From the sequence record PX068456.1: DNA of 64,000 nucleotides, one strand, 5' to 3'. Shown one piece after another: positions 10,866 through 64,000 of this stretch (position 1 is its first letter; every line of letters starts with the position of its first letter). The translations under genes and the position numbers were made by a program. This DNA is from a phage. Below the pieces are notes generated by a model. The model was not told where the DNA came from and made no database searches. It saw nothing but the letters and a program-made list of their open reading frames with translations.

Positions 10866-10920
10866 TTAACAATATTACTCTAACATATTATTAGCCCCTT
10901 TGTCAAGAGGCTTTTGATAT

Positions 10921-11244
10921 TTATTTTAAAATAGTAGATGCACCACGTCTGTTTAGATATGCAATAGTAAAATCCAAATCACCTATTTCTTCAGGTTCCC
11001 ACTGACCTTCTAAACCATAACAAGAACAATGATATGCGTGTACTTCATAAAACAAAGATGTTTTCATATCATAAAAATAAACGTGAGATTCACCTTCATA
11101 ATATGCACAATCATAAGTGGCAGAAAGAATTACAATGTTATCCTTATCTAACTCTACTTCATAATATCTTTCAACATCTTCAATATCATCAAAACCATCG
11201 AAAACATTGATATTAAAATATTTCTCTAACTCTTTTTCTGTCAC
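10921..11244 (-). CDS. hypothetical protein embedded in the tRNA array
   Basis: 107-aa ORF between tRNA genes, same strand. Confidence 0.45.
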   Translation of the reverse strand: MTEKELEKYFNINVFDGFDDIEDVERYYEVELDKDNIVILSATYDCAYYEGESHVYFYDMKTSLFYEVHAYHCSCYGLEGQWEPEEIGDLDFTIAYLNRRGASTILK

Positions 11245-13435: not shown

Positions 13436-15169
13436 TTAGTCAACCTGGATGGTTCCCATAGTACGAAGAACCTCTACGTCAACACGGTTGCGGATATCAG
13501 TAAATGTTTCATCACGTCCTTCTACTTGTGGTGTAATAACCTTACCATTCTTGAAGATAACTTGTAACTCATTGTCTTCATCCTGGATATCTTTAAAAGA
13601 AAGATTATCTACAAGAGAAAGATTACCATTGGTATCCTTAACAACCTTAATAAAACCTTTTGCAGAGCGTTTACCAGGATCAGTTTTAGGCTCCTTACTT
13701 ACCAAAATTTCGTGTTCACCGATGATGCTACCTGTTGCTTTAACAGCAAAACCAAAAGTATCTCGTGTATTGAACTGATAAGTATAACTACCAACACCAA
13801 ATACAATATTGGAAGCTGCAAAACCTTTCTTCTTCAGTCGGCGTAAGATCTCGTGTTCTCGTTCAACAGTAATAGAATCACCATAAATCATACCGATATG
13901 CTGATCAAGAACCTTGTAGCCTTTTCGGTTGATAGTACCACCAAACACTTCCCAAAGGATTTGAATAGAACCTACTGCTTCACAATAAGGAATCTCATAA
14001 GTTTCATCAATGCAATCAGCAACACTGCAATCCTGAAGAACATTGTAATACTTATTAACATCAGCCAAATGAACTACTTCAGTGGCTGTCGCAATACCAT
14101 TATTTAAGAGGTCTTCATAGTTATCAAAAGATTCAACATTGTATCCTGCAACAACTTTAACCGGATCTCCTGAATCTGGACGAATAACAAGACGACCATT
14201 TCGTGACATAATGGAATCTTTCAATTCTACCAGAATGCGAGTCAATACAGCCCAATAGTCATAAGAGTCTGCTACATATGAACAAAAACCTTCTGGAACA
14301 ATTTCTTCGATATAACGACGAAGAAACTCTTTTTCTGCTACATAACGAAGCCCATCTACATCATCTTTAAGATGTGGGAAATGTTTCTTCAGATCTTCAA
14401 CAATAGCTCCAATGTTAGTCGTTGCTACTGAATGTTCTGTTGCCGGAATCGAACCTGCAACAAACTGATCATAATCAATACCATAATAATCATGCACAGT
14501 TTCAATAGCCAGAATATTATCTGTTCCTGTGAACGATGCCAAGTGAGCGATACCACTCTTATAACCATCTTCGATATTACTTAAACCACGTAGGCTAAAA
14601 TCATGACACTGGAAGTTAACGTGATCAATATTATCACACGTTGCCATCGCATATGCCATAGCGATACGCTTATACTGAAAAGCTGCTGTGGCATTAGTCA
14701 TTGTCTTCCAAGTTTCATCTGACAACAGTGTTTCCACATAGTTAGTTAACCAAAAGAATTTTTCTAAAGTATTATGCACAGTAAATACAGGAACACCAAT
14801 AGGACACAAAACACCCTCTGGCAGAGATCGAACTTCCAGCGGAAGATAACCTAAGTCGTGCAATTCTCCCCAACATTCAGCAGAAGGAGCAGAAGCACCT
14901 AATGCATTTTTAGACATACGATAAAATTTATTTACTGCTGCACTACGAGACATTTTAAAGAAGCTATCCCACATAGTTACAAGAGCATCAGTGACTGCTC
15001 GACGAATACCTAAAACAATCACACCACGTGCTTCACGATCTGCATAGTGTGCAAAGTTTTTATCATTACGAGGAGTTAAATTAGAGAAAATAAGTTTTGT
15101 ATTTTGGTTGTACATCTGCTTGTGACCAGGTTTGTACCAATCAGTAGCAAAAGGTGCAAAAATATTCAT
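13436..15169 (-). CDS. nadV: nicotinamide phosphoribosyltransferase family protein (NAMPT/NadV-like; alternatively a nicotinamide ADP-ribose transferase, Namat)
   Basis: 577 aa, NAMPT-family length; adjacent to a PRPP-synthetase-like gene on the same strand. Confidence 0.8.
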   Translation of the reverse strand: MNIFAPFATDWYKPGHKQMYNQNTKLIFSNLTPRNDKNFAHYADREARGVIVLGIRRAVTDALVTMWDSFFKMSRSAAVNKFYRMSKNALGASAPSAECWGELHDLGYLPLEVRSLPEGVLCPIGVPVFTVHNTLEKFFWLTNYVETLLSDETWKTMTNATAAFQYKRIAMAYAMATCDNIDHVNFQCHDFSLRGLSNIEDGYKSGIAHLASFTGTDNILAIETVHDYYGIDYDQFVAGSIPATEHSVATTNIGAIVEDLKKHFPHLKDDVDGLRYVAEKEFLRRYIEEIVPEGFCSYVADSYDYWAVLTRILVELKDSIMSRNGRLVIRPDSGDPVKVVAGYNVESFDNYEDLLNNGIATATEVVHLADVNKYYNVLQDCSVADCIDETYEIPYCEAVGSIQILWEVFGGTINRKGYKVLDQHIGMIYGDSITVEREHEILRRLKKKGFAASNIVFGVGSYTYQFNTRDTFGFAVKATGSIIGEHEILVSKEPKTDPGKRSAKGFIKVVKDTNGNLSLVDNLSFKDIQDEDNELQVIFKNGKVITPQVEGRDETFTDIRNRVDVEVLRTMGTIQVD

Positions 15170-15240
15170 AGTTATGTCTCCTTGTTTGTTAATGTGGGAG
15201 TATCTTACTAAGCATACTCCCTATTGTCAACACTTATTAT

Positions 15241-16134
15241 TTAAAAATTCCACACGTATGGAGATACAATTTGTTGTTGCAAATCTGACTGATTCTTAAC
15301 AAGAACACCAGAATCTTCTTGGATGTTATCTTCCCACACATTAAGAGAATGAATGCAGTCAAAGTGCTCACTTAACTCTTTAAGACCTTTAGAAAAGATA
15401 CCGTGCGTAACATATAGCTCAATCTTACCTGCGTTACGAGCACGTAGCACTTTAGCCAATTCGATAAAAGTTCTACCACCATCACAGATATCATCTACGA
15501 TCATCAGGTTACGCTTATTGAAATCCTGTACAGAAATGTCTGTACGAACAATAGCACCTGTTGCGGTATCTCTAACCTTCTCTGCACAGAACACATCTAA
15601 AGACATTTTCTTAGATAATTTAAATATTTTCTTAAGAGCACCACCATCAGGGCTAACAAGAGCAAAATTCTCCATACGTAACTTCCACTTTAAAGTTTCG
15701 TAAGCAATCTCTTCTTGAGGTATTACACAGAGTCTGTCAAACACTGCTGGAGTAACATCACTATGCGGATCAGCAACGATAACACGTGAGAAATTTAATG
15801 AATTAATTATAGAAGCAAATGCTTTAACTCCGAATGCTTCCCCAGGCTCACACACTCTGTCTTGTCGTGCATACGGCACATACAACATGAGTAAATCAAC
15901 ACAATATGGTTTATGATATAGCATATTGTCCAATGCATTCTTAGTCATAACCAAAGTCATCAAGTCTTTAGCAGATCTTACTTCTAAAGTGAGTAAGATT
16001 CTGTCTGTAGTATGATTGAAACCTGATAGATTCGTATCTAACTGAACATGTTGTTCTCCACCAGAGAATGTAAACACTTTAACGTCTACATCAGTAACAT
16101 AACAGTCAACACCATGCAGAATACTAACTTTCAT
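15241..16134 (-). CDS. prs: ribose-phosphate pyrophosphokinase family protein (Prs-like; alternatively an ADP-ribose pyrophosphokinase, Adps)
   Basis: 297 aa with PRPP-binding-loop-like motif MIVDDICDGGRTF. Confidence 0.8.
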   Translation of the reverse strand: MKVSILHGVDCYVTDVDVKVFTFSGGEQHVQLDTNLSGFNHTTDRILLTLEVRSAKDLMTLVMTKNALDNMLYHKPYCVDLLMLYVPYARQDRVCEPGEAFGVKAFASIINSLNFSRVIVADPHSDVTPAVFDRLCVIPQEEIAYETLKWKLRMENFALVSPDGGALKKIFKLSKKMSLDVFCAEKVRDTATGAIVRTDISVQDFNKRNLMIVDDICDGGRTFIELAKVLRARNAGKIELYVTHGIFSKGLKELSEHFDCIHSLNVWEDNIQEDSGVLVKNQSDLQQQIVSPYVWNF

Positions 16135-16543
16135 TCTTTATCTCCTTAGTTGAGTTAGGACTTTATGTTCTCTACTCTACATACAGATAGATCTAAAGTC
16201 AATAGATATTTATTATTTAATTAATAATAAAATTAATAAATAATCTATTGTTAGTATAGAGCATGTATGTTAGTATTATAGACATAACATAGTGTTATAT
16301 GTAGACTACTCAGTTGTCTGTTAGATCATGTATCACAAGATTAGATAACACCCCCTCGCTGCGCTCGGCGTTTTTCGGGGGTTAGGGTAGCATACTTTTT
16401 TGCGTTTGTCAACACCTTTTTAGATTATTTTTAAGTACAACCTGAACCTCCTAAAAACGATTGTAACGAGTTTTACTGTGAGGTAAGGTGATTGCATATC
16501 TTAGGTGCTATTAGCTCGTTACAGAGCCATACAGGAGGGAATA
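16135..16543. promoter_or_regulatory. AT-rich divergent intergenic control region between the minus and plus gene blocks
   Basis: about 400 bp non-coding with an AT palindrome (ttatttaattaataataaaattaataaataa), short direct repeats and a GC island acaccccctcgctgcgctcggcgtttttcggggg. Confidence 0.4.
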
Positions 16544-16912
16544 ATGAGGGTCACACGTTACGTTAGAAGTGAAACAATAGATGGAGGCATAATGTATGCT
16601 TTCTACGATGATAAAACTTTTTGTTCTGCATTCTATGAAGAAGACTTGTCTACGGAATGGCAACAAATCATCTTCTTACTTGACATTTTGAAAAGAAGAG
16701 ATAACTTTGAAGGTATTGAGTGGACAGTGGGAAGCAAAGTTATCGTTGCAGGTTTAAGCAAACATGAGTTGCTTGACTTAGACTGTAAACTTTGTAATTA
16801 TCAATTCTCAAAACGTTTACCATTAGAAAGACAGTTAGGAGTTGAGATTCATGTTGACTTGGGCGATGGAGTATCCTATACTCTCAACAATCATAGTGCT
16901 GACGTTAATTAG
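16544..16912 (+). CDS. hypothetical protein
   Basis: start set to the ATG after acaggaggg (MRVTRYV...). Confidence 0.5.
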   Translation: MRVTRYVRSETIDGGIMYAFYDDKTFCSAFYEEDLSTEWQQIIFLLDILKRRDNFEGIEWTVGSKVIVAGLSKHELLDLDCKLCNYQFSKRLPLERQLGVEIHVDLGDGVSYTLNNHSADVN

Positions 16913-35509: not shown

Positions 35510-35656
35510 ATGGATGATGTAAGTATTTGTCCTGTCTGTGGTGGCACTGGGAATTTTATTGTTAGTATGGAACAATTTATTCCTTGTTGGAATTGTAACG
35601 GTTTAGGTTTCGTTCATACGGAAGAAAAAGAAGAGGAGGAAGATAATGGGAACTAA
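35510..35656 (+). CDS. small CxxC...CxxC zinc-ribbon protein (48 aa, not in the ORF track)
   Basis: MDDVSICPVCGG...CWNCNG; overlaps the next ORF by 11 nt. Confidence 0.35.
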   Translation: MDDVSICPVCGGTGNFIVSMEQFIPCWNCNGLGFVHTEEKEEEEDNGN

Positions 35657-52016: not shown

Positions 52017-52046
52017 AAAGCCCCTAGAAGCGATTCTAGGGGCTTT
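52017..52046. terminator. bidirectional terminator at the convergent junction
   Basis: aaagcccctagaagcgattctaggggcttt hairpin with A/T runs on both sides. Confidence 0.6.
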
Positions 52047-55184: not shown

Positions 55185-55433
55185 TTACCATCGAATAACT
55201 ATTCGAGTAAAGTTTTCATCGTAATGAGATGTTTCTGTATCAATAAAAGTTGAAAAACCTTCAGCATCCAAGTTAACTTTTACAAAAGTTGGATAAAGCG
55301 TGTAGATAGCAACTTCTCTGTCTCCATCTTTAGCTGCTCTCTCAATATACGAGTAGATATTTTGTAGACTATCCTTTGCTTTGTTAAGTTCTGCGTTTTC
55401 TGCCAGTTCTCTCATTTTATCTGCTACAGTCAT
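55185..55433 (-). CDS. hypothetical protein
   Basis: 82-aa ORF. Confidence 0.5.
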   Translation of the reverse strand: MTVADKMRELAENAELNKAKDSLQNIYSYIERAAKDGDREVAIYTLYPTFVKVNLDAEGFSTFIDTETSHYDENFTRIVIRW

Positions 55434-55702
55434 TTGTCAGTATCCTTTTCAATAAAGCCTGTGGTTTTACAAGGCACACATTCATACATTTGTCCAACAT
55501 CTGCAACCACCCAACCCATGCCACTGCAATAAGGACAGATTGTTTTGTTCTCTTTAGCATACACAGCCAGAAGTCTTTCTTCTAGCTTATTGTAATCGGC
55601 AAGAAGAACATAATCTCCTTCTGGATCTGGTACAATATCACATTGACCAGCAGCACCTTGACTGTACACCTCTAAGCCATATCGTGTAACCATTATTCCC
55701 AC
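55430..55702 (-). CDS. hypothetical protein, CDIVxDPxG family paralog A
   Basis: 90 aa; shares a CDIVPDPEGDYVLLADYNKL block with 60197..60421. Confidence 0.5.
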   Translation of the reverse strand: MGIMVTRYGLEVYSQGAAGQCDIVPDPEGDYVLLADYNKLEERLLAVYAKENKTICPYCSGMGWVVADVGQMYECVPCKTTGFIEKDTDK

Positions 55703-55911
55703 TCCGCAATTAGTTTTGGATTTTCTGCACGAGAATAGAACGTTGTAATGTCACCGTAAGTATAATCTTGTTCCGACAGTTTTACAAGAGAGATCATTTC
55801 ACGATCTGGAGTACCAGAGATCCAATCAAACACAGCAACACCACGGGGTGTTACATAGAAACCAGATGTATTACCCGTAAACTTATCTTTTGCTTTATAT
55901 AATTTGTACAC
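55693..55911 (-). CDS. hypothetical protein
   Basis: 72-aa ORF. Confidence 0.45.
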   Translation of the reverse strand: MYKLYKAKDKFTGNTSGFYVTPRGVAVFDWISGTPDREMISLVKLSEQDYTYGDITTFYSRAENPKLIAEWE

Positions 55912-56118
55912 TTTCTACTCCTCATAGATAAAATCTATTAAAAACCTACTATCAATCGGTACAAACAGTTTTACTTTTCGTAAAAAACATGCTACCCTAA
56001 TCTTATATACCGAGCGATAGCGAGGTAGAGAATATTCCATGTTATACATGGAAAGAGTATATGTAATGTTACTAACTCTATAACTAACTATATACTCTTT
56101 ATATCTTACTTACTACTC

Positions 56119-56382
56119 TTATTGAAGTTCAAAGATATCCCCATCTCCATCATATCCATACTCTAACTCTCCTGTATCATATAATACAATAAAGTCTGTA
56201 TCATCTTCAATAAAAGATTTAGCATAATCTACTAACTCTTCATTATCTTCATAACCTTCCAGGTACTCAATACGACCATTGATACACTTAGCTGCAACAA
56301 TTCCTGGGCCATTGCTTGGAGTCCACTCACTGTATACTCGCATGCCTAATTCTTTAATCATTGTTTGTCTCCTCATAATCAA
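56119..56382 (-). CDS. hypothetical acidic protein
   Basis: 87-aa ORF. Confidence 0.5.
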   Translation of the reverse strand: MIMRRQTMIKELGMRVYSEWTPSNGPGIVAAKCINGRIEYLEGYEDNEELVDYAKSFIEDDTDFIVLYDTGELEYGYDGDGDIFELQ

Positions 56383-56578
56383 CGTAATTGTAACACTTAT
56401 TCTTTAAGAAATCTTCTGCTTGTTTATTATGTTTTAGAATGGTGCACTTCTCTATGTTATGTTCTACATTGTTGTGTAGATTGTATAAGTTAGCTGCACC
56501 ATACAGAATACCAATTAACAAAAGCAAAAAGATTGCTGTTGATAACAAAAATTGTTGCAACTTGTTTACAGACTTCAT
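56354..56578 (-). CDS. small membrane-anchored protein, paralog of 60431..60649
   Basis: N-terminal transmembrane helix then KCTILKHNKQAEDFLKNKCYNYVDYE, cf. QCIVFKHQRDAEKFLALDCNRYVSYQ. Confidence 0.5.
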   Translation of the reverse strand: MKSVNKLQQFLLSTAIFLLLLIGILYGAANLYNLHNNVEHNIEKCTILKHNKQAEDFLKNKCYNYVDYEETNND

Positions 56579-56631
56579 GAATCCTCCTTATCGTTAGTAC
56601 ACATTGATACTAACAAGAAGTTAAGATCGTG

Positions 56632-56805
56632 TCAACATCTTTGTGTTAATTTTATCCACTGTTCACATTCTTCTTTTGTGTCATACTCTACAGGCTTTCC
56701 TGTATCATTTCCACAACCATCTCCGAATGTAGCCCACCAGGAGAATAGAAAACAAGTTTCTCTTACTCTCCACTTATTGGCATAAGGTACAACATAATAA
56801 CTCAT
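56632..56805 (-). CDS. small Cys-rich protein (57 aa), preferred over plus-strand track ORF 56552..56785
   Basis: minus-strand ORF in an all-minus block. Confidence 0.4.
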   Translation of the reverse strand: MSYYVVPYANKWRVRETCFLFSWWATFGDGCGNDTGKPVEYDTKEECEQWIKLTQRC

Positions 56806-57053
56806 GGGATTGTGATCCTTAGTTCATTTTTTAAAGTATGTCTCACACATTCTTTGAAATTGTTATCAATATACACCACACGTACTCCATGAGGTGTGTC
56901 TTTACATTCAAACACATTATATACAGTATCAGATAAGACATGTTGTACGTTTACTTGTCCAATGCCATTTTTAACCACAACCATTACTTTCAGTAAACTT
57001 GTATGGTTTTTAACTTCATCTGCTACGTATGCTACAACATCTTTGATATTCAT
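56802..57053 (-). CDS. hypothetical protein, paralog of the N-terminal region of 62163..62624
   Basis: VAYVADEVKNHTSLLKV...VQHVLSDTVYNVF, cf. VADYVKEHSSLLDV...VRHILSETRYEVF. Confidence 0.5.
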   Translation of the reverse strand: MNIKDVVAYVADEVKNHTSLLKVMVVVKNGIGQVNVQHVLSDTVYNVFECKDTPHGVRVVYIDNNFKECVRHTLKNELRITIP

Positions 57054-57349
57054 GGTTTCTCCTGTTTAAGTACGATATAGGATTGACGAGATTTCCATCG
57101 CCCTATCTTAACAAGGCAAATAATGCCTCTCTTTAACAAATATTTCATATCTTCGTCATAAGCTGTTTGCAATTGCCACTTACTGTTAACAGGAAGCGAA
57201 CCATGTACCCTTAAATGAGCTAACAAATACTTTCTTCGCTCCTTTCCATAAGGCAGGTATTGCCATTCTTTCTTTGATACAGGTTCATGTACTTTGCGAT
57301 GCCAGTAAGTAAGGTGTCTTCTTTTATGTAAACCCCTGTTCCTTACCAT
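57050..57349 (-). CDS. hypothetical basic protein
   Basis: 99-aa ORF. Confidence 0.5.
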   Translation of the reverse strand: MVRNRGLHKRRHLTYWHRKVHEPVSKKEWQYLPYGKERRKYLLAHLRVHGSLPVNSKWQLQTAYDEDMKYLLKRGIICLVKIGRWKSRQSYIVLKQEKP

Positions 57350-57588
57350 TATACCTCTACCTCCGTTACCCCAGGATCTCTAGTCCAGGTGTAGTAGAGC
57401 ATACCATCTTCTTTCAGTGCAATGCGATCACTTTCGTCTCGAAGATATAAGTCACAAACTACGCGCAGTTGCGGATCTGATCCGAGTAGCTCTGAAACAA
57501 TAAGGTCATCACCGCTCATACGAGCAACAATCACTGCATATTGACCAGTATCTTCATCAAAAATTGGTTGTCCGATGTTTAATTGCAT
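57349..57588 (-). CDS. hypothetical protein
   Basis: 79-aa ORF. Confidence 0.5.
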   Translation of the reverse strand: MQLNIGQPIFDEDTGQYAVIVARMSGDDLIVSELLGSDPQLRVVCDLYLRDESDRIALKEDGMLYYTWTRDPGVTEVEV

Positions 57589-57773
57589 TGTGTTGTCTCC
57601 TTATTCAGTACGTTGTTTTGTGCTGCGCACCAGCACTCATAAAAACCTTGGGTTAATGGCATAGTGTAGTTTCCAGAAGGATCTCTTTCGAGATCCCCAT
57701 CTGCATAACAACCACTACCTAAGAACCATTTTTCAAAATCGGATAAATCATCCCAGTCTACGCTATTTTTCAT
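57579..57773 (-). CDS. hypothetical protein
   Basis: start trimmed to the internal ATG (MKNSVDWDD...) just after the upstream stop. Confidence 0.4.
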   Translation of the reverse strand: MKNSVDWDDLSDFEKWFLGSGCYADGDLERDPSGNYTMPLTQGFYECWCAAQNNVLNKETTQCN

Positions 57774-57774
57774 A

Positions 57775-58233
57775 TTATACAGTCTTATACCCGACAATAG
57801 CAACCTGATTCGTAGGTTTCCAACGACCAATAATCTCACCAGAAATCTCTGTGCTACTGTTTATGTATTGGAAATGGGTATCATCATGATTAACCCACGC
57901 CATAACGTCAAGGGTAGGGGTTTTGACGTGTACCAGCAGTGTAGCCCATTCTGGGGCTTCTTTAATATCCACAAAATCTTGCCAATCTTCTTCGATGTGC
58001 CAAGTAGGTTCACCATCAACATCTGTAACGAAGAAACGAGCTTTCATACGTTTAAAGAACATTGGTGTATACCCATGATCGCACTCTGGGATAAAATCAT
58101 CCATCGTCTCGTCATAGGTGAAATATTGTCCATCTTTGTAATGAAAAGATGCACAAAACAGTTCATTACGAGCAGGAACATGCCATACAGCTACAAAACT
58201 ACGACCATGTGGATAATGTTTAACCTCTTGCAT
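57775..58233 (-). CDS. hypothetical protein
   Basis: start set to the ATG after aaggag (MQEVKHYPHG...). Confidence 0.5.
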   Translation of the reverse strand: MQEVKHYPHGRSFVAVWHVPARNELFCASFHYKDGQYFTYDETMDDFIPECDHGYTPMFFKRMKARFFVTDVDGEPTWHIEEDWQDFVDIKEAPEWATLLVHVKTPTLDVMAWVNHDDTHFQYINSSTEISGEIIGRWKPTNQVAIVGYKTV

Positions 58234-58249
58234 AGTTTTCTCCTTATTT

Positions 58250-58594
58250 TTATTCAAAAGAATCAATTCGATTTTGTTCTATGTCAATTGCAGCATCTAA
58301 GATAAGTTTTAATGCTTCAAATTGCAAGTGTTCTTCTAAAGAGAAGACATATAAAACAACGGACTCCAAGTAAGACAGCACCCCAAGACTAAGAGTTGCA
58401 ATTTCTACTCCTGCATCGGAGAAGCCTGTTTGCAAAACTTCTTTGAAGAAACGTTGTTTATCAACAATAGCAGATAAAATAAGCGTTTTACGCTCCTCTG
58501 CTGATCGCACTGTGCAGTATATGTTGCTAAAAGAATCCAGCCACATTTTGATCATACCTTGGCGGTACATAAGGATTTCAATATCAGCCAACAT
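58250..58594 (-). CDS. hypothetical protein
   Basis: start trimmed to the ATG after gagga (MLADIEIL...). Confidence 0.45.
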   Translation of the reverse strand: MLADIEILMYRQGMIKMWLDSFSNIYCTVRSAEERKTLILSAIVDKQRFFKEVLQTGFSDAGVEIATLSLGVLSYLESVVLYVFSLEEHLQFEALKLILDAAIDIEQNRIDSFE

Positions 58595-58595
58595 A

Positions 58596-58784
58596 TTATT
58601 TATCCTCTGGAGAAAGATTTGTATTAATTTGATAGTAAAAATCAAAATCCTTGTGCTGATCGCACCATTCTTGAGCCTCTTTAAATGACGCAAATTGCAT
58701 AGTGAATGTTGCCATCCACGTGTTCATATTTTTATTAAACTTGTCGATAAAAAATGTTTGCATTATTCCTCCCATTTTATCCAA
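58596..58784 (-). CDS. hypothetical protein
   Basis: 62-aa ORF. Confidence 0.45.
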   Translation of the reverse strand: MDKMGGIMQTFFIDKFNKNMNTWMATFTMQFASFKEAQEWCDQHKDFDFYYQINTNLSPEDK

Positions 58785-58996
58785 AGGCAGTATTCTGGAA
58801 CATAAACCTCTTTCCCTTTGTTATTCACAAAGGTGTACTCCACGAATTCTGCTTTATATGTTTTGTTATATTCCTCTGCTGCTGGCACAGGACATTTTGT
58901 AATGCGCGTTTCAGTCCAACGGCGGTGTATAACCGCCTTGTTCTTTGGATCAAACGGATGTATAAAGTGCGTTTTACTCATGTGCCATTTCCACAA
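58763..58996 (-). CDS. hypothetical protein
   Basis: 77-aa ORF. Confidence 0.45.
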   Translation of the reverse strand: MWKWHMSKTHFIHPFDPKNKAVIHRRWTETRITKCPVPAAEEYNKTYKAEFVEYTFVNNKGKEVYVPEYCLWIKWEE

Positions 58997-59378
58997 GATT
59001 TTTAATCATAGTTTCTCGACAGAGATTCCACATATCTGAAGCAACCATAGAGGCATATTCATCGGGGTTGGATTCTGGTAAAATCTCTTTAACTGCTTCT
59101 GGTGTCGGATTGCAGAGAGCAGGTAGTGCTTTAAGTGCATCTTCAATAGAGAGCTTCTTACCTTCACTGTAAATAATCTCGTAACCATAATCATTTACAT
59201 CTTCTGAAATATCCCGATCCAGGTAACGTACAGTGGAGTTATGCATTTTGTTCATAGCTTCACTAACACCTGCGCCACAAAGCTGTGCAACTTCTTCAGA
59301 GATACAATCACAAATAACAACTTCATAAGGTTTTCCACCATAATACTGCGCATTATATTTGATTTTAACAGACCACAT
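58974..59378 (-). CDS. hypothetical protein
   Basis: 134-aa ORF. Confidence 0.5.
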   Translation of the reverse strand: MWSVKIKYNAQYYGGKPYEVVICDCISEEVAQLCGAGVSEAMNKMHNSTVRYLDRDISEDVNDYGYEIIYSEGKKLSIEDALKALPALCNPTPEAVKEILPESNPDEYASMVASDMWNLCRETMIKNLVEMAHE

Positions 59379-59433
59379 ATCACTCTCCTTATTTAACGTG
59401 TTTTAGCAATTCAATAAAACATAATCTCTTTCA

Positions 59434-60018
59434 TTACACATCCTCCATTTGGAACATCTCTTTGTGGTTAGAATAGATCTGTTTGAAAATCTTGTCAAGA
59501 CGTTCATATGATTCTTTATGCTCTTGTTTCCATCCTTGATTTCGGATTTTATCTGCCAGATCATAAGCCTCGCATAAAACTTTGGCAAAATTGGTATTAT
59601 CTATAGCACAAGCCTCAAAACCCTGAACTAAACCCTCTACATCGTACCACGTGTAGTCAGAGTTACTAGGAGGCTTTCCTGCGTCGGCTAAACGTTGCCT
59701 TACCCATTCAATACGTTTTTCATTCAAATGGCACTTACCTTCCCTACACTCTTGTTCTAATTCTTCTTTAGATTCGTTGAATGGGTGAAGGACAGGAAGT
59801 TCTGCTTTTTGCAATTGCTCCAGGTATTCACCTACAATGCGCATAGCTTCACTGTGTGTACACTTTCTGCCTGTGTGCCAGTAACGGAAGATACTTTCTG
59901 TTAAACAGATGCTTTTACTAAACATCGCATTGTCTTTAACATTCGATCTAGTAACCCAGTCTATATAATATACATAAAACTGCAATAATTCATAACTGCT
60001 TGGTATAATTTTACTCAT
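59434..60018 (-). CDS. hypothetical protein, LLQFY...HPFN family paralog 1
   Basis: 194 aa; shares LLQFY, HPFN and HLNEKRIEWV blocks with 60642..61010 and 62986..63408. Confidence 0.55.
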   Translation of the reverse strand: MSKIIPSSYELLQFYVYYIDWVTRSNVKDNAMFSKSICLTESIFRYWHTGRKCTHSEAMRIVGEYLEQLQKAELPVLHPFNESKEELEQECREGKCHLNEKRIEWVRQRLADAGKPPSNSDYTWYDVEGLVQGFEACAIDNTNFAKVLCEAYDLADKIRNQGWKQEHKESYERLDKIFKQIYSNHKEMFQMEDV

Positions 60019-60027
60019 GACCTCTCC

Positions 60028-60195
60028 TTAATTGTGAAAAATGTTATCGATCAGTATGATTAGTAGTACGAGGATAGAAGGGAGTAGGAATAGAAATCTT
60101 AACATTATGTGACGCGTGTGAGAAGCGGCTTTAGCTCCAGCCGCCAATAAGCCTACTAGTCCTACAATAAAGAGCAGTTGTTCAGGGACACCCAT
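60028..60195 (-). CDS. small membrane protein (55 aa, not in the ORF track)
   Basis: two hydrophobic segments; weak ribosome-binding site. Confidence 0.35.
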   Translation of the reverse strand: MGVPEQLLFIVGLVGLLAAGAKAASHTRHIMLRFLFLLPSILVLLIILIDNIFHN

Positions 60196-60196
60196 A

Positions 60197-60421
60197 TTAT
60201 GGAACACTTGGATACTCCGTAAGTTTGGCTAACAGTTGAATATGTGGACACGTGAATTGTTGTCCTGGGTAGCGTGAGCTAATATCATCCAGCAAAGCAA
60301 TCACAGCATTGTGCAATGCTTCGTAATCTTCATAATACACCATTTCTCCATTAGGATCTTCCACAATATCGCAGTGACAAGCGTGAGCAGTACACGCATC
60401 CCATTCCAGACGTTTTACCAT
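60197..60421 (-). CDS. hypothetical protein, CDIVxDPxG family paralog B
   Basis: 74 aa; CDIVEDPNGEMVYYEDYEAL block. Confidence 0.5.
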   Translation of the reverse strand: MVKRLEWDACTAHACHCDIVEDPNGEMVYYEDYEALHNAVIALLDDISSRYPGQQFTCPHIQLLAKLTEYPSVP

Positions 60422-60430
60422 AAACCCTCC

Positions 60431-60649
60431 TTACTCATACATTTGATAAGATACATAACGGTTGCAATCAAGTGCGAGAAACTTTTCAGCATCCCTTTGA
60501 TGCTTGAACACAATACACTGTTCTTTTTTAGCTTCACTTTCACGAGCTTCTCTTGCCATATGCTCACCTAAACGAATGATACCAGAGAATAACACGTATG
60601 CAAGAATAAGACAAACAGAGATTGCACAGAAAGTTTTAAACTTAATCAT
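60431..60649 (-). CDS. small membrane-anchored protein, paralog of 56354..56578
   Basis: start set to the ATG after ggagg (MIKFKTF...). Confidence 0.5.
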   Translation of the reverse strand: MIKFKTFCAISVCLILAYVLFSGIIRLGEHMAREARESEAKKEQCIVFKHQRDAEKFLALDCNRYVSYQMYE

Positions 60650-61010
60650 TGTATTCCTCCATATCACGAATACGATCAATCACCCATTGTACACGTTCTT
60701 TGTTAAGGTGCGCAATGCCTAACTCTGTTTCCGTAAAGTAGTGTGAGAAATCTGTATTAAATGGGTGTAAATGGTTCAAACCCGCTTTCTTAAACTGTTC
60801 CTTCATTTCCTCTCGTACAGAGGCTTGAAGGTTTGCTACATTCTCAACGTCTTTTATCCAAGCAATATTGTATAAGAAGTCTACAAGACACGTGCAAAGA
60901 CCATAATGCTTTTTGCTAAAGTTTGTATCTTCTTGTTCTAACCACCACTCATAAAATTGTAGCAAATAGGTGCTGCTTTTCATGTTACACACTTTATTAT
61001 TCTCTTGCAT
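60642..61010 (-). CDS. hypothetical protein, LLQFY...HPFN family paralog 2
   Basis: 122 aa; LLQFYEWW, GLCTCLVDFL, HLHPFN, HLNKERVQWVIDRI. Confidence 0.55.
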   Translation of the reverse strand: MQENNKVCNMKSSTYLLQFYEWWLEQEDTNFSKKHYGLCTCLVDFLYNIAWIKDVENVANLQASVREEMKEQFKKAGLNHLHPFNTDFSHYFTETELGIAHLNKERVQWVIDRIRDMEEYND

Positions 61011-61019
61011 GATCTATCC

Positions 61020-61319
61020 TTAATGCCAATCTACGATCACTGAATCTACAAAACCCTCTTTGGTGTTTAAAGCATACACCTTACTAAGTCCACGCTCTCG
61101 CAGTGCTTCCATAGCAAGATCAATCAAATCCACTTGGCGTTTCCTTGCTTGTTCATTTGTCGGATAGTCATCCAAACCGAAAACAGATGGTTTAAATGCC
61201 TTGGAGTATTTGCCAGTTTTTGCCTGATCATAACAATCCTGAATAACTTCATCAATAGGAAACCACAAGCCTTCTCCACTTTGCTTTGCAATACAGCGCA
61301 GTTTTTCTGTAACAGTCAT
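61020..61319 (-). CDS. hypothetical protein
   Basis: 99-aa ORF. Confidence 0.5.
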   Translation of the reverse strand: MTVTEKLRCIAKQSGEGLWFPIDEVIQDCYDQAKTGKYSKAFKPSVFGLDDYPTNEQARKRQVDLIDLAMEALRERGLSKVYALNTKEGFVDSVIVDWH

Positions 61320-61537
61320 TCTTCCTCTCCTTTCAATTTACACTCAAAGATACCATTCTTAATGTTATCTGTCAAATAAAGGCTATCTTCTATCTCTTCT
61401 TTTGTATACACATAAGCCTCCTTTTCCACGTCTGTCAGACCTTGCATCGGAGCTAGTAGCCACCAGCCCCGCCAGTCAAACATAGGAGACTTATCAGATA
61501 CACGAAGAATGTATCTATCATTACACATATTATACAA
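61316..61537 (-). CDS. hypothetical protein
   Basis: 73-aa ORF. Confidence 0.45.
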   Translation of the reverse strand: MYNMCNDRYILRVSDKSPMFDWRGWWLLAPMQGLTDVEKEAYVYTKEEIEDSLYLTDNIKNGIFECKLKGEEE

Positions 61538-61982
61538 TGTTCACATGAACATCTGCAACACCAATAAGCGAATATACTTCAACTACACTCTGTGTACGAT
61601 CCAGTTTGTAACGTTTTGCCTCTTTTTCAACTTCCTCACGGTAGGTTGTTTCCATGATTGGAACTCCGTCCACTACTAGCAGGTATTTCTCTTCACGTTT
61701 ACTTTTTGGTGCTTCCTCTAATACTTCTACAAAGTATTCAAACTCACTTTTTGCAAGCAATGTGTAACACTGACGAAAATCGCCTTCGTTTTGAGTGATA
61801 ATTTCTTGTTCTCCTGCTAAGGATTGCAAAGAAGTTACACCATACCAGTCATCCACATCTAATACACGAAAACAGGAATCACCTAAGAAAAAAGCAATCT
61901 TGCTATTGCACTCAGACACATTACCAAACTTACGGATATAAGATGCGTTTTTAAAACGATACACTTTACCAATTTCAAACAT
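61530..61982 (-). CDS. hypothetical protein
   Basis: 150-aa ORF. Confidence 0.5.
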   Translation of the reverse strand: MFEIGKVYRFKNASYIRKFGNVSECNSKIAFFLGDSCFRVLDVDDWYGVTSLQSLAGEQEIITQNEGDFRQCYTLLAKSEFEYFVEVLEEAPKSKREEKYLLVVDGVPIMETTYREEVEKEAKRYKLDRTQSVVEVYSLIGVADVHVNIV

Positions 61983-61996
61983 TACACAACTCCTTA

Positions 61997-62170
61997 TTAT
62001 TCAAGAGTAAAAGGAATGATCTCACCATAGCTGTATTGCATGGCATTCACTTCTGCTTCTGCACGTTGTGCTAGTTCTAATGTTGCACAGATCTTGTAAG
62101 GAACAGTGCTGCATTGGCTCCAGCCTGGGGTATTCTTTGTTACTAAGTACACAGTAGTTTCTTTATTCAT
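61997..62170 (-). CDS. small hypothetical protein (57 aa, not in the ORF track)
   Basis: aggagaggaaagttATG. Confidence 0.45.
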   Translation of the reverse strand: MNKETTVYLVTKNTPGWSQCSTVPYKICATLELAQRAEAEVNAMQYSYGEIIPFTLE

Positions 62171-62624
62171 AACTTTCCTCTCCTAGTTCATCATACCATT
62201 TCAAAGCATCTTTTGGAAGCATACCAAAATCTTCTTTCAGTTCTTTTTCAATCTCTTCTTTCAGTTCATTCAACACTTGCAGTTGGCGTATTTTCTTCCG
62301 TAACAAAGTTTCCCGCTCATTGTTGCTTGGTGTTACTTCATTTGCTGCCATCATCACATATCCGGTCGGAGAGCAAGGAAGATAATCATCAATATTTTCT
62401 AAAGCATAACGAAAATTGGAATCCAAGAAGTTTACATGCACTTGATCACATCCAAACAACTTGGCACGAAATACTTCATAACGAGTTTCAGATAAGATAT
62501 GTCGCACACAGACAATACCTACATCATTTTGCACTGCACAGGTTACATCTAACAAACTTGAGTGTTCTTTGACATAATCTGCAACACATTGCACATGTGC
62601 TTCCAGTATAGATAGTTGTCTCAT
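62163..62624 (-). CDS. hypothetical protein, N-terminal region paralogous to 56802..57053
   Basis: 153 aa with an acidic coiled-coil-like C-terminus. Confidence 0.5.
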   Translation of the reverse strand: MRQLSILEAHVQCVADYVKEHSSLLDVTCAVQNDVGIVCVRHILSETRYEVFRAKLFGCDQVHVNFLDSNFRYALENIDDYLPCSPTGYVMMAANEVTPSNNERETLLRKKIRQLQVLNELKEEIEKELKEDFGMLPKDALKWYDELGEESYE

Positions 62625-62684
62625 TTTCTACCTCCCCATAATGCTAACATTATTCTGTTGTGGTGTGATCATTGCACACAACCT

Positions 62685-62915
62685 TTAATAAACAATTTCA
62701 TATTCATGAGGAAAGAAAACATAATCTTCCCCTTCTCGTGCATCTATCTCGTCCCAAAACCATTCCTGCACTTCCATCATCTTCGAGAATCGCACATGAG
62801 CAAGCCCACTGTATTCCACCGTAGCTTCCAATACTAGTGGAAATTTTACATGGGTAAGTCCTTTATAACCACCATCATTCTCAATACGAATTTTCATGTG
62901 TTTCATGTTATGCAT
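62685..62915 (-). CDS. hypothetical protein
   Basis: 76-aa ORF. Confidence 0.45.
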   Translation of the reverse strand: MHNMKHMKIRIENDGGYKGLTHVKFPLVLEATVEYSGLAHVRFSKMMEVQEWFWDEIDAREGEDYVFFPHEYEIVY

Positions 62916-62985
62916 TTCATCTCCTCATTGGCTATTTGTTATGCGCGGTATTGCATATCTTATGGAACACAGTGTACAGACATTT

Positions 62986-63408
62986 CTACTCAATGCAAGC
63001 ATTATTTGCATCTTCGATTCTGTCTTTCACCCACTGCAATCTCTTTGGGTTGGTATGGCAAGAATGTGTCTTACCTTCATCTTCATAACACAGAAGATCA
63101 TAATTAAAGGGTAGGAAGGAGGATAGCCCAGCACACGTGAATTGCAGTTTCATCTCTTCCAGCGTTTTGCTACGAACCATCTTGAAATGTTCTATATCTT
63201 CTTGCGTAGGTTTTTTCTTTGACATAGTGGTTGCCAGGTAATCCATAAGGCAATTACACAAACCAACATTCTCACGATGCATTGAGGAATGATCTTCCAT
63301 CCATGCTTTGTAAAATTCTAACAGCAGTGGACTGCTAAGAGGAACACACATATCAGACTCCTTTATAAGATTACGTTTCATGCCACACATCATACAGCGT
63401 CTTTTCAT
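62986..63408 (-). CDS. hypothetical Cys-rich protein, LLQFY...HPFN family paralog 3; first gene of the minus-strand block
   Basis: 140 aa; LLLEFYKAWM, GLCNCLMDYL, LPFN, RLQWVKDRI. Confidence 0.55.
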   Translation of the reverse strand: MKRRCMMCGMKRNLIKESDMCVPLSSPLLLEFYKAWMEDHSSMHRENVGLCNCLMDYLATTMSKKKPTQEDIEHFKMVRSKTLEEMKLQFTCAGLSSFLPFNYDLLCYEDEGKTHSCHTNPKRLQWVKDRIEDANNACIE

Positions 63409-64000
63409 CTGTTACAAGAACAGCAACATAGGAACATCATTAATGAAGGATTTAGTATAGGATTTCCCTATCAATTATTCTATATATACCTATTATTTTT
63501 AACACACCCCTTAGTACATAATATAGACAAATAAATATCTATGCCACAAAAATTTTCCGGTATACCCGATTTATTTCGACACACCCCCTTTTCATAAGCG
63601 TAAAGTCAATAATATCAATAACTTGCCGCAAAATACTGCTCGCTTGCGAGAGGTGCTTAACGCGATTTTTAGCGCCCCCCGATTTCTGCCGACCGTCCCC
63701 CTCAAATATCAATGAGAATTATTATCATTTGCATTATCATTCAATGACTTATAAGACTTTTGATTATTTTCTAAGCAAGAAAGGCATTACTCACAACAAA
63801 ACAGATAAATTCTAAGCAAATCAATGGCTTGGCAAGTCTAAACATCTATATACACCTTGCCAAATGAAATGATCCTGCGTGAAATAGTGCCACCCGTGGA
63901 AGATAGCTGATAATGATTATCATTTGCATACTTTCTATACTATAAAACGCCCTAAAAATCAAAATAATTCTGATTTATTGCGCTTTTAAGAAAGTAGGCT
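63409..64000. promoter_or_regulatory. non-coding repeat-rich control region upstream of the minus-strand small-gene block
   Basis: no ORF of 60 aa or more; GC islands (acacccc, cgccccccg, cgtccccc) in AT-rich DNA; direct repeats attatcatttgcat (about 63721 and 63919) and ttctaagcaa (about 63770 and 63811). Confidence 0.45.

Follow-up and report, generated by a model that had tools for sequence, protein, structure and literature searches.

The 64,000-nucleotide stretch of phage DNA analyzed here (sequence record PX068456.1; hereafter the window) carries, on its minus strand, at least 37 small genes that abut or overlap one another between approximately 52.1 and 63.4 kb. This block holds four sets of paralogous genes, designated families (a), (b), (c), and (d), which are the subject of this study. 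Along the direction of transcription, from 63.4 to 55.4 kb, their members are arranged as A3, C2, (A2), B2, D2, A1 ... C1, B1, and D1. Megablast searches with the 8-kb region under study returned matches in 123 phage records, the best being Enterobacteria phage ECGD1 (98%) and the Justusliebigvirus phages VEcB, W22, PHB05, PaulScherrer (Bas60), and phi92. Mid-window DNA matched the same phi92-like phages at 99%. On the strength of these matches, the window is assigned to a phi92-like Escherichia coli myovirus of the genus Justusliebigvirus, subfamily Stephanstirmvirinae.

A sequence-only reading of this DNA had proposed at least four paralogue families within the minus-strand block, and alignment statistics place all four well beyond chance. 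A BLASTP all-versus-all comparison among 30 block proteins recovered exactly these sets. Within family (a), E values were 1.6e-23 for g60642/g62986 (A2/A3), 1.8e-10 for g59434/g60642 (A1/A2), and 1.3e-6 for g59434/g62986 (A1/A3); those of the remaining pairs were 3e-7 for (b), 1.3e-12 for (c), with 45% identity over 74 amino acids (aa), and 2.8e-5 for (d). Smith–Waterman scores were additionally compared with those of 5000 composition-preserving shuffles, yielding Gumbel p values of ~0, 1.5e-9, and 7e-7 for the (a) pairs, 1.2e-7 for (b), 1.4e-12 for (c), and 3.3e-6 for (d). Not one shuffle reached the observed score, and every set, even the weakest (d), remained significant after correction for the 666 pairs among 37 genes. 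A scan of the PHROG profiles supported the sets independently: the three (a) proteins all matched phrog_2510 (E = 2.2e-17, 2.2e-25, and 8.9e-23), as well as phrog_6418 and phrog_27059, and the two proteins of each of the other sets fell into separate PHROGs that cross-matched reciprocally. When orthologue profiles were aligned with hhalign, (a) and (c) each reached a probability of 100% and (b) one of 99.9%; (d) reached 91%, over only 31 columns. Pairwise and profile alignments were the check that the earlier reading had itself suggested, with non-significant shared blocks as the result that would speak against it; none was found. Its motif descriptions require two amendments. The (a) proteins are paralogous as a trio, but the GLCxC and HPFN blocks ascribed to all three are each present in only two of them (g59434 reads SKSICL and g62986 reads LPFN). 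Likewise, the (d) pair does share CDIVxDPxG, within an N-terminal module of ~30 residues rather than over the whole protein.

The open reading frames (ORFs) of the block are, on codon-level evidence, functional protein-coding genes under purifying selection. Over ~9.6 kb, pooled ratios of non-synonymous to synonymous change (dN/dS) were 0.13, 0.10, and 0.13 against PaulScherrer, W22, and ECGD1, respectively. The genes are also retained in these relatives (W22 and ECGD1 each keep 36 of the 37, and PaulScherrer keeps 35), with 35 of 37 common to all three at 92–100% identity; it is the combination of low dN/dS and presence in relatives that identifies them as real genes. The non-synonymous share, computed by hand from the codon table, was roughly 0.3–0.4 for (b) and (c), ~0.14 for (a), and ~0.05 for (d). 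Most of the encoded products are small and acidic. In public records all block genes are labeled hypothetical; a few also bear labels of the kind "putative transcription factor/DNA-binding" in the BASEL record MZ501100.

Family (a) comprises three minus-strand genes. A2 (60642..61010) encodes a compact single-domain protein of 122 aa, which was used for structural modeling. A1 (59434..60018) encodes 194 aa, in which the (a) domain is followed by a C-terminal extension of ~75 aa; it matches phrog_27059 over its full length (E = 6.6e-140) and phrog_2510 over residues 7–149. A3 (62986..63408), recognized by BLAST, PHROG, and hidden Markov model (HMM) comparisons, probably starts at the ATG at 63351 and not at 63408, as that ATG is preceded by the ribosome-binding site (RBS) aaggag and yields a product of 121 aa, the usual size in the family. 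The block in this phage group always begins with one to four tandem (a) genes. The PHROGs phrog_2510, phrog_6418, and phrog_27059, all of unknown function, belong to the same family as the three (a) proteins. PHROGs thus split the family into several groups and hold no record of its three- to eight-copy expansion in Stephanstirmvirinae, its early location, or its residue signature. No Pfam or NCBIfam model matches (a).

The family extends far beyond this phage group. An exhaustive search of 1.84 billion cluster representatives with a profile built from the three paralogues retrieved 705 clusters at E ≤ 1e-3, including 143 at E ≤ 1e-10. Most of these are stand-alone proteins of 100–120 aa, with some tandem double domains or fusions, and the profile-HMM match spans a domain of ~105 residues. 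Searching 50,697 phage records with tblastn located (a) at 467 places in 178 records; the listed records of Stephanstirmvirinae had between one and eight places each, and those of Rhizobium, Erwinia, and Klebsiella phages a single one each. The family is nearly missing from a collection of genomes from 185,579 species (one 367-bp contig) and from plasmids (one match), and it is therefore essentially a virulent-phage family. Given just this contig and this plasmid match, prophage or plasmid context was set aside as a route to its function. A 166-aa metagenomic relative (P0005) joins an A1-like N-terminal (a) domain to a g58250-like C-terminus at a common "DAG" tripeptide, and this fusion would correspond to a natural deletion of four intervening genes (window equivalent 58250–60018).

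Copy number varies within and between genera. HMM mapping found three (a) copies in the window, two each in PaulScherrer and W22, seven in phAPEC8, and eight each in Citrobacter phage Tr1 and phiWec179. The window copies are 30–40% identical to one another, and A3 is 51–52% identical to its positional orthologues, phAPEC8_0019 and the third phiWec179 copy. Since A3 is closer to its counterparts in another genus than to the other window copies, the duplications are, judging from these identities, older than the split between Justusliebigvirus and Phapecoctavirus.

To describe the fold of (a), A2 was modeled with AlphaFold2 from a 20-sequence alignment. The prediction is a confident six-helix structure (predicted local distance difference test score, pLDDT, 87; predicted template modeling score, pTM, 0.81) without a significant match among solved structures. 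Its structural neighbors in BFVD are uncharacterized proteins of Rhizobium, Pectobacterium, Burkholderia, Achromobacter, Delftia, and Klebsiella phages. A residue signature was derived from 184 domain instances, using representatives no more than 50% identical. In A2 numbering, the positions kept in 73–96% of these domains are S13, L16, F19-Y20, W23, G37-L38-C39, E68, Q72-F73, A76-G77-L78, P83-F84-N85, Y91, E94, H101, N103, R106, and W109-V110. They form the blocks SS-L-FY-W, GLC, E-QF-AGL, PFN, Y-E, and H-N-R-WV. A2 has all of them, A3 deviates with LPFN and CHTN, and A1 lacks the G-L of GLC. The many conserved polar residues suggest a fixed biochemical site rather than a freely evolving binding surface.

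Family (b) consists of B1 (56354..56578; 74 aa) and B2 (60431..60649; 72 aa), both on the minus strand and both, as the sequence-only reading had described them, small membrane-anchored paralogues. Their N-terminal hydrophobic segments reach Kyte–Doolittle maxima over 19 residues of 2.41 at residue 10 (B1) and 2.56 at residue 7 (B2). Lysines precede this segment, which is followed by a C-terminal motif of ~25 residues between two conserved cysteines; only this motif (residues 44–69) of B2 is conserved in Phapecoctavirus. By these features the (b) proteins are single-pass membrane proteins, with the C-terminus probably on the periplasmic side. The block also encodes two other small hydrophobic proteins, g60028 and g54279.

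The pairing of C1 (56802..57053) and C2 (62163..62624), also minus-strand genes, as family (c) likewise held. C1, of 83 aa, contains only the shared N-terminal domain, modeled as alpha-beta4-alpha, and in the 153-aa C2 this domain is followed by a long C-terminal helix. According to the models, the two members have a small alpha/beta domain in common. C1 is present in Justusliebigvirus records, and the examined loci of phAPEC8 and phiWec179 yielded no counterpart. As far as these comparisons extend, both (b) and (c) are restricted to this lineage.

Family (d) is modular. D1 (55430..55693, minus strand; 87 aa) takes its start from the annotation of its relatives, in place of the 55430..55702 given earlier, and combines an N-terminal module with a C-terminal double CxxCxGxG zinc finger. 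D2 (60197..60421, minus strand; 74 aa) has only residues ~14–44 in common with D1 (CDIVxDPxG...DYxxL), a module of ~31 residues with a single conserved Cys. The double CxxCxGxG spacing of D1 (CPYCSGMG...CVPCKTTG) recurs in a stand-alone 48-aa ORF on the plus strand at 35510..35656 (CPVCGGTG...CWNCNGLG), with which the D1 zinc module is paralogous (shuffle p = 1.5e-6). Because its two halves match D2 and this ORF separately, D1 is a two-module fusion. Both zinc modules have the motif spacing of the DnaJ-type CxxCxGxG and anti-TRAP families (PF00684, PF15777), although D1 and the 48-aa ORF are stand-alone mini-proteins without a J domain, D2 lacks the zinc module, and the Pfam scores of the D1 zinc finger are about half the gathering thresholds (15.7 versus 32 bits; 14.9 versus 32.7 for PF00684). 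Residues 2–48 of D2 match the "Lar-like" phrog_3592 weakly (E = 8.7e-4). D2 resembles the Lar/Ral restriction alleviation proteins (phrog_3592; PF14354) in this match and in its small size; it differs in lacking CxxC pairs, and thus the zinc ribbon, and in having no Pfam match at E ≤ 1.

The 5' end of the block is shaped by exchange at a conserved DNA junction. A three-genome alignment delimited an island of ~130 nt (62915..63045, minus strand), which takes in the final ~55 nt of A3 with its stop codon, a spacer, and, from the following gene, the RBS and ATG. This island is nearly identical in the window, phAPEC8, and phiWec179, that is, across genera, whereas the coding sequence on either side is divergent or unrelated. 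A3 homologues are ~35–50% identical overall and end in the identical terminal peptide WVKDRIEDANNACIE, a frozen tail explained by its being encoded inside the island. The spacer contains a candidate promoter, TTGCAT-16-TACACT in the window and TTGCAT-16-TA(C/T)A(C/G)T across genomes, so that the junction probably carries a promoter. A3 is intact in the window; in ECGD1 a 1-nt gap shifts its frame, and PaulScherrer and W22 have lost it by deletion. Both of the latter phages keep a 54-nt island core (62961–63014) despite the loss, and in PaulScherrer it lies at 10896–10949, ~58 nt upstream of the C2 start (10838). Beside the island, the mosaic cassette gene g62685 (62685..62915, minus strand; 76 aa) is found in none of ECGD1, PaulScherrer, and W22. 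This gene (within 62652–62915) shows 94.7% nucleotide identity to phAPEC8_0021 (7976–8239), from a different genus, and looks like a recent inter-genus cassette transfer. The island coincides with an indel and recombination boundary, and these alignments identify the 5' end of the block as a cassette-exchange point at which copy number changes as cassettes are gained and lost. Viewed as an accessory region (sensu Silas et al.), meaning a variable hotspot between conserved flanks, this end does vary, through the A3 and g62685 indels and extra genes in PaulScherrer and W22, yet 35 of the 37 block genes are common to the relatives compared. PaulScherrer carries an additional 687-bp gene (6960–7646) immediately downstream of A1. 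W22 (2942–3190) and PD06 have an additional 249-bp ORF between B2 and D2, whose annotation as an "M20/M25/M40 family metallo-hydrolase" is implausible. These extra genes beside paralogue copies may mark further small indel hotspots.

Upstream of the block lies a gene-free leader, of which only the first ~600 bp fall within the window (63409..64000, minus strand). The gap is conserved ahead of the block in all relatives and measures 1.5–2 kb (ECGD1, 14650–16765; phAPEC8, 5512–7022; phiWec179, 13456–15001). It contains conserved promoter-like elements, iteron-like repeats (CAACAAATAG... and AAGGGGTGTGT...), and small palindromes, and a search for non-coding RNA within it gave no Rfam match. At 63909–63927, the sequence matches the E. 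coli Fur-box consensus GATAATGATAATCATTATC at 17 of 19 positions, the sole such site in 64 kb, where 0.07 would be expected. This site falls within a repeated 15–37-nt motif, AGAATGATTATCATT, located at 63698–63734 and 63893–63929 and present in four copies in ECGD1 (15005–16190). The motif may possibly mediate iron- or Fur-responsive control, or serve as the operator of a phage regulator, and the gap as a whole might house clustered promoters, an origin, or a packaging region. A comparable architecture has been reported for rV5, of the sister group, in which ~88 mainly small ORFs in one region are interrupted by ~2.6 kb with "no observable ORFs" (Kropinski et al. 2013, PMC3606486); the same arrangement of small ORFs plus a gap is seen here and in phAPEC8, phiWec179, and ECGD1. 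A term search of the rV5 paper met no mention of gene families or duplication (PMC3606486); the families, their copy variation, and the island were worked out here.

Several other features of the block deserve mention. At its downstream end stands a bidirectional terminator-like hairpin (52017..52046) with a 13-bp stem and T-runs after it on both strands, and the sign of the GC skew flips near 52 kb. The proteins g56119 and g57349 (56119..56361 and 57349..57588) are very acidic, of ~80 aa, each with an isoelectric point (pI) of 4.05; hhalign paired them at 84% over their full length, and their shuffle p of 0.003 loses significance after correction, so that they represent a possible fifth paralogue pair. 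The pair g55185/g61020 was rejected as a fifth family (hhalign 5.6%, shuffle p = 0.06); both proteins open with MTV..K, close with IV..W, and are called "putative transcription factor" in MZ501100. Also rejected were g54669 as a distant (a) member, where a BLAST E value of 0.005 and a shuffle p of 1.5e-4 failed correction and the (a) HMM gave no match, and the 57-aa genes following C1 and C2 (g56632 and g61997) as paralogues (p = 0.81). The order C>B>D recurs along the block; a single segmental duplication behind this repeat is not claimed, as its chance expectation is ~6/90 and the intervening genes are unrelated, which leaves the pattern suggestive only. The protein g57050 (57050–57349; 99 aa, pI 10.45, net charge +17) is the sole strongly basic product of this acidic block and a candidate nucleic-acid binder. 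Finally, five GenBank records titled "Campylobacter phage" (host C. jejuni; e.g., MG065656, MG065645, and MG065650) match the E. coli phi92-like block, with the listed (a) and (b) proteins 93–95% identical, and host mislabeling or contamination is the likely cause.

The timing of block expression can be approached through the position of (a) in better understood phages. The N4-like Erwinia phage Kuerle has its (a) homologue ahead of the RNAP1 genes, 1.9 kb in from the left end, and in the Autographiviridae Rhizobium phage RHEph08 the homologue gp007 lies at 2.3–2.9 kb. The left-end regions of N4 and T7 are early regions, and by analogy we infer that the block is also transcribed early; its start directly behind the gene-free leader, with the conserved promoter-like elements there, is indirect support as well. 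Large virulent phages offer a second analogy: T4-type hyperplastic early regions, with their mobile cassettes of promoters and stem-loops (PeSL), and the takeover modules of SPO1 and T5 vary between relatives and are thought to be early. The present block is like them in being a cluster of small, mostly acidic, unannotated genes, with a promoter-like junction at its exchange boundary. It differs from the T4 case in that repeated promoter/stem-loop cassettes are absent (a repeat scan of 52–64 kb found no recurrent intergenic element inside the block), the genes abut or overlap, there is one conserved junction, and the block is mostly stable in close relatives.

Taken together, we consider host takeover the most plausible role for the block by analogy with such regions, and we give about an even chance to a reading in which its genes form a polycistronic set, expressed early, for small proteins that interact with the host, with (a) presenting one conserved site on diverged scaffolds and (b) acting at the envelope. 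Host-type promoters in the leader and the junction island would drive early transcription of the block into one long polycistronic message, and its products would act as takeover proteins that bind or modify host components. In (a), the S, Y, C, E, Q, N, E, H, N, and R residues that hardly vary would together make up a single fixed site, whether it binds a ligand or a metal, performs catalysis, or contacts one conserved partner. With the remainder of the protein diverged, each paralogue would apply this common chemistry to a different target or under different conditions. The (b) proteins would most likely operate at the inner membrane or in the periplasm, with superinfection exclusion or modification of the envelope as example roles.

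A number of observations weigh against this reading. Its "early" component draws on position and analogy, and a literature search on Stephanstirmvirinae found no transcriptome or expression data and nothing specific on screens of the region. A promoter scan of the block gave 61 hits compared with 48 ± 7 in shuffled sequence, barely above expectation, and the island promoter in the window matches at only 4/6 and 4/6 positions. An argument that the block is the first DNA to enter the cell was abandoned, since the records examined are circular assemblies, follow phi92 gene numbering (W22), or are linearized at the terminase gene (Eryne), and do not reveal physical ends. The conserved polar signature of (a) could be structural rather than catalytic. 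Searches for function by homology (Pfam, NCBIfam, and sequence and profile searches of the PDB) came back empty for the family proteins, and no fold match pointed to a function. Domain fusions were equally uninformative, as ten multi-domain (a) relatives contained no Pfam domains and their partners were PHROGs of unknown function.

The alternatives differ in how much of the block they explain. In a bolder proposal, which we regard as improbable, (a) is a superfamily of phage effectors that has gone unrecognized, in which a new helical fold holds a fixed site for catalysis or ligand binding built from the near-invariant Ser/Tyr/Cys/Glu/Gln/Asn/His/Arg positions; it is deployed early in many unrelated virulent phages, and its three to eight copies reflect target diversification against a polymorphic host system, be it a defense or an essential machine. 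Slightly more improbable still is the anti-defense arsenal also raised by the sequence-only reading, in which each paralogue inhibits a different immune-system variant and duplication tracks an arms race. Podovirus early regions harbor anti-defense genes such as T7 ocr, and (a) is found in early regions of podoviruses. The dynamic copy number (zero or one A3 among close relatives, three to eight (a) copies among genera), mosaic exchange at the 5' end, the predominance of small acidic products, the relatively greater non-synonymous change in (b) and (c), and the Lar-like match of D2 all fit such an arsenal. That match, however, has no Pfam backing, and D2 lacks the cysteine pairs of a zinc ribbon. 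Structure prediction, which the earlier reading had suggested for each family and which was run for (a) and (c), gave a confident six-helix and an alpha/beta model with no fold likeness to solved anti-defense proteins (Ocr, ArdA, Acb2, Tad, Acr, and others). A rigid polar signature over 184 domains, at a dN/dS of ~0.14, is unlike a fast-evolving inhibitor surface, and purifying selection with most of the block stable among close relatives is unlike an arms-race arsenal that turns over quickly on short timescales. The marked sensitivity of close relatives to restriction-modification (RM) and to cyclic-oligonucleotide-based antiphage signaling (CBASS) also leaves the reading unsupported: exceptional susceptibility to RM systems has been reported for phi92-like phages (PMC8594841), and a type I CBASS blocks Bas60 except when an anti-CBASS gene is provided in trans (10.1101/2025.07.12.664507). 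Activity against other defense systems would still be compatible with these observations.

Competition between phages offers a further explanation, which we judge unlikely: (b), and perhaps others, would block the DNA entry or development of competing phages instead of targeting host physiology. The single N-terminal transmembrane segment of (b), with lysines before it that suggest an N-in orientation, and its short cysteine-flanked C-terminal domain resemble the small exclusion proteins of T-even phages, and the hydrophobic g60028 and g54279 could be counted with them. Neither PHROG nor Pfam comparisons brought up a homologue among Imm, Sp, Cor, or Llp-type proteins, and the explanation covers (b) only, leaving the soluble (a), (c), and (d) proteins unaccounted for. 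It is quite improbable that the families are transcription factors or other DNA-binding regulators of the phage program; MZ501100 labels the C2 and D1 homologues "putative DNA-binding protein", the long, coiled-coil-like C-terminal helix predicted for C2 could dimerize, and D1 has a zinc finger, but a recognizable DNA-binding fold or domain, such as a helix-turn-helix, together with a basic surface charge was looked for in (c) and not found. Least probable of all is that the copies are functionally irrelevant, whether spurious ORFs or duplicates decaying after recombination in a dispensable region. The uniformly "hypothetical" annotation, the A3 frameshift in ECGD1 and its deletion in PaulScherrer and W22, and deletion-fusion variants in metagenomes such as P0005 would suit this explanation. 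It is largely refuted by the pooled dN/dS, by paralogues that have stayed intact at 30–45% identity since before the genus split, by the conservation of (a), with near-invariant residues, over hundreds of phage lineages, and by the confidently predicted folds; pure junk is effectively excluded.

The clustering of small unannotated genes with internal families was already familiar in large virulent phages, as were the rV5 architecture and the PHROG grouping under "unknown function". New here are the paralogy of separate PHROGs, the copy-number map, the size, fold, and signature of the (a) superfamily, its early-region positions, and the junction island, which provides a concrete example of a cassette swap at a promoter-bearing boundary between phage genera. 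In the large virulent phages used for therapy, including those like phi92 and phAPEC8, small genes lacking annotation take up tens of kilobases, and sorting out which of these are duplicated, lineage-specific, or widespread guides priorities for their study. The region is of an ordinary kind for phages, and (a) is a good candidate for experimental characterization, being a tractable target with hundreds of lineages, a confident fold without a solved match, an enzyme-like signature, positions in the early regions of several phage families, and natural copy variation. Should (a) prove to have a host-takeover or counter-defense activity, hundreds of phage genes would be annotated at once; and if it is indeed a diversified effector superfamily, the broad host range of phi92/phAPEC8-like phages would make its expansion adaptive.

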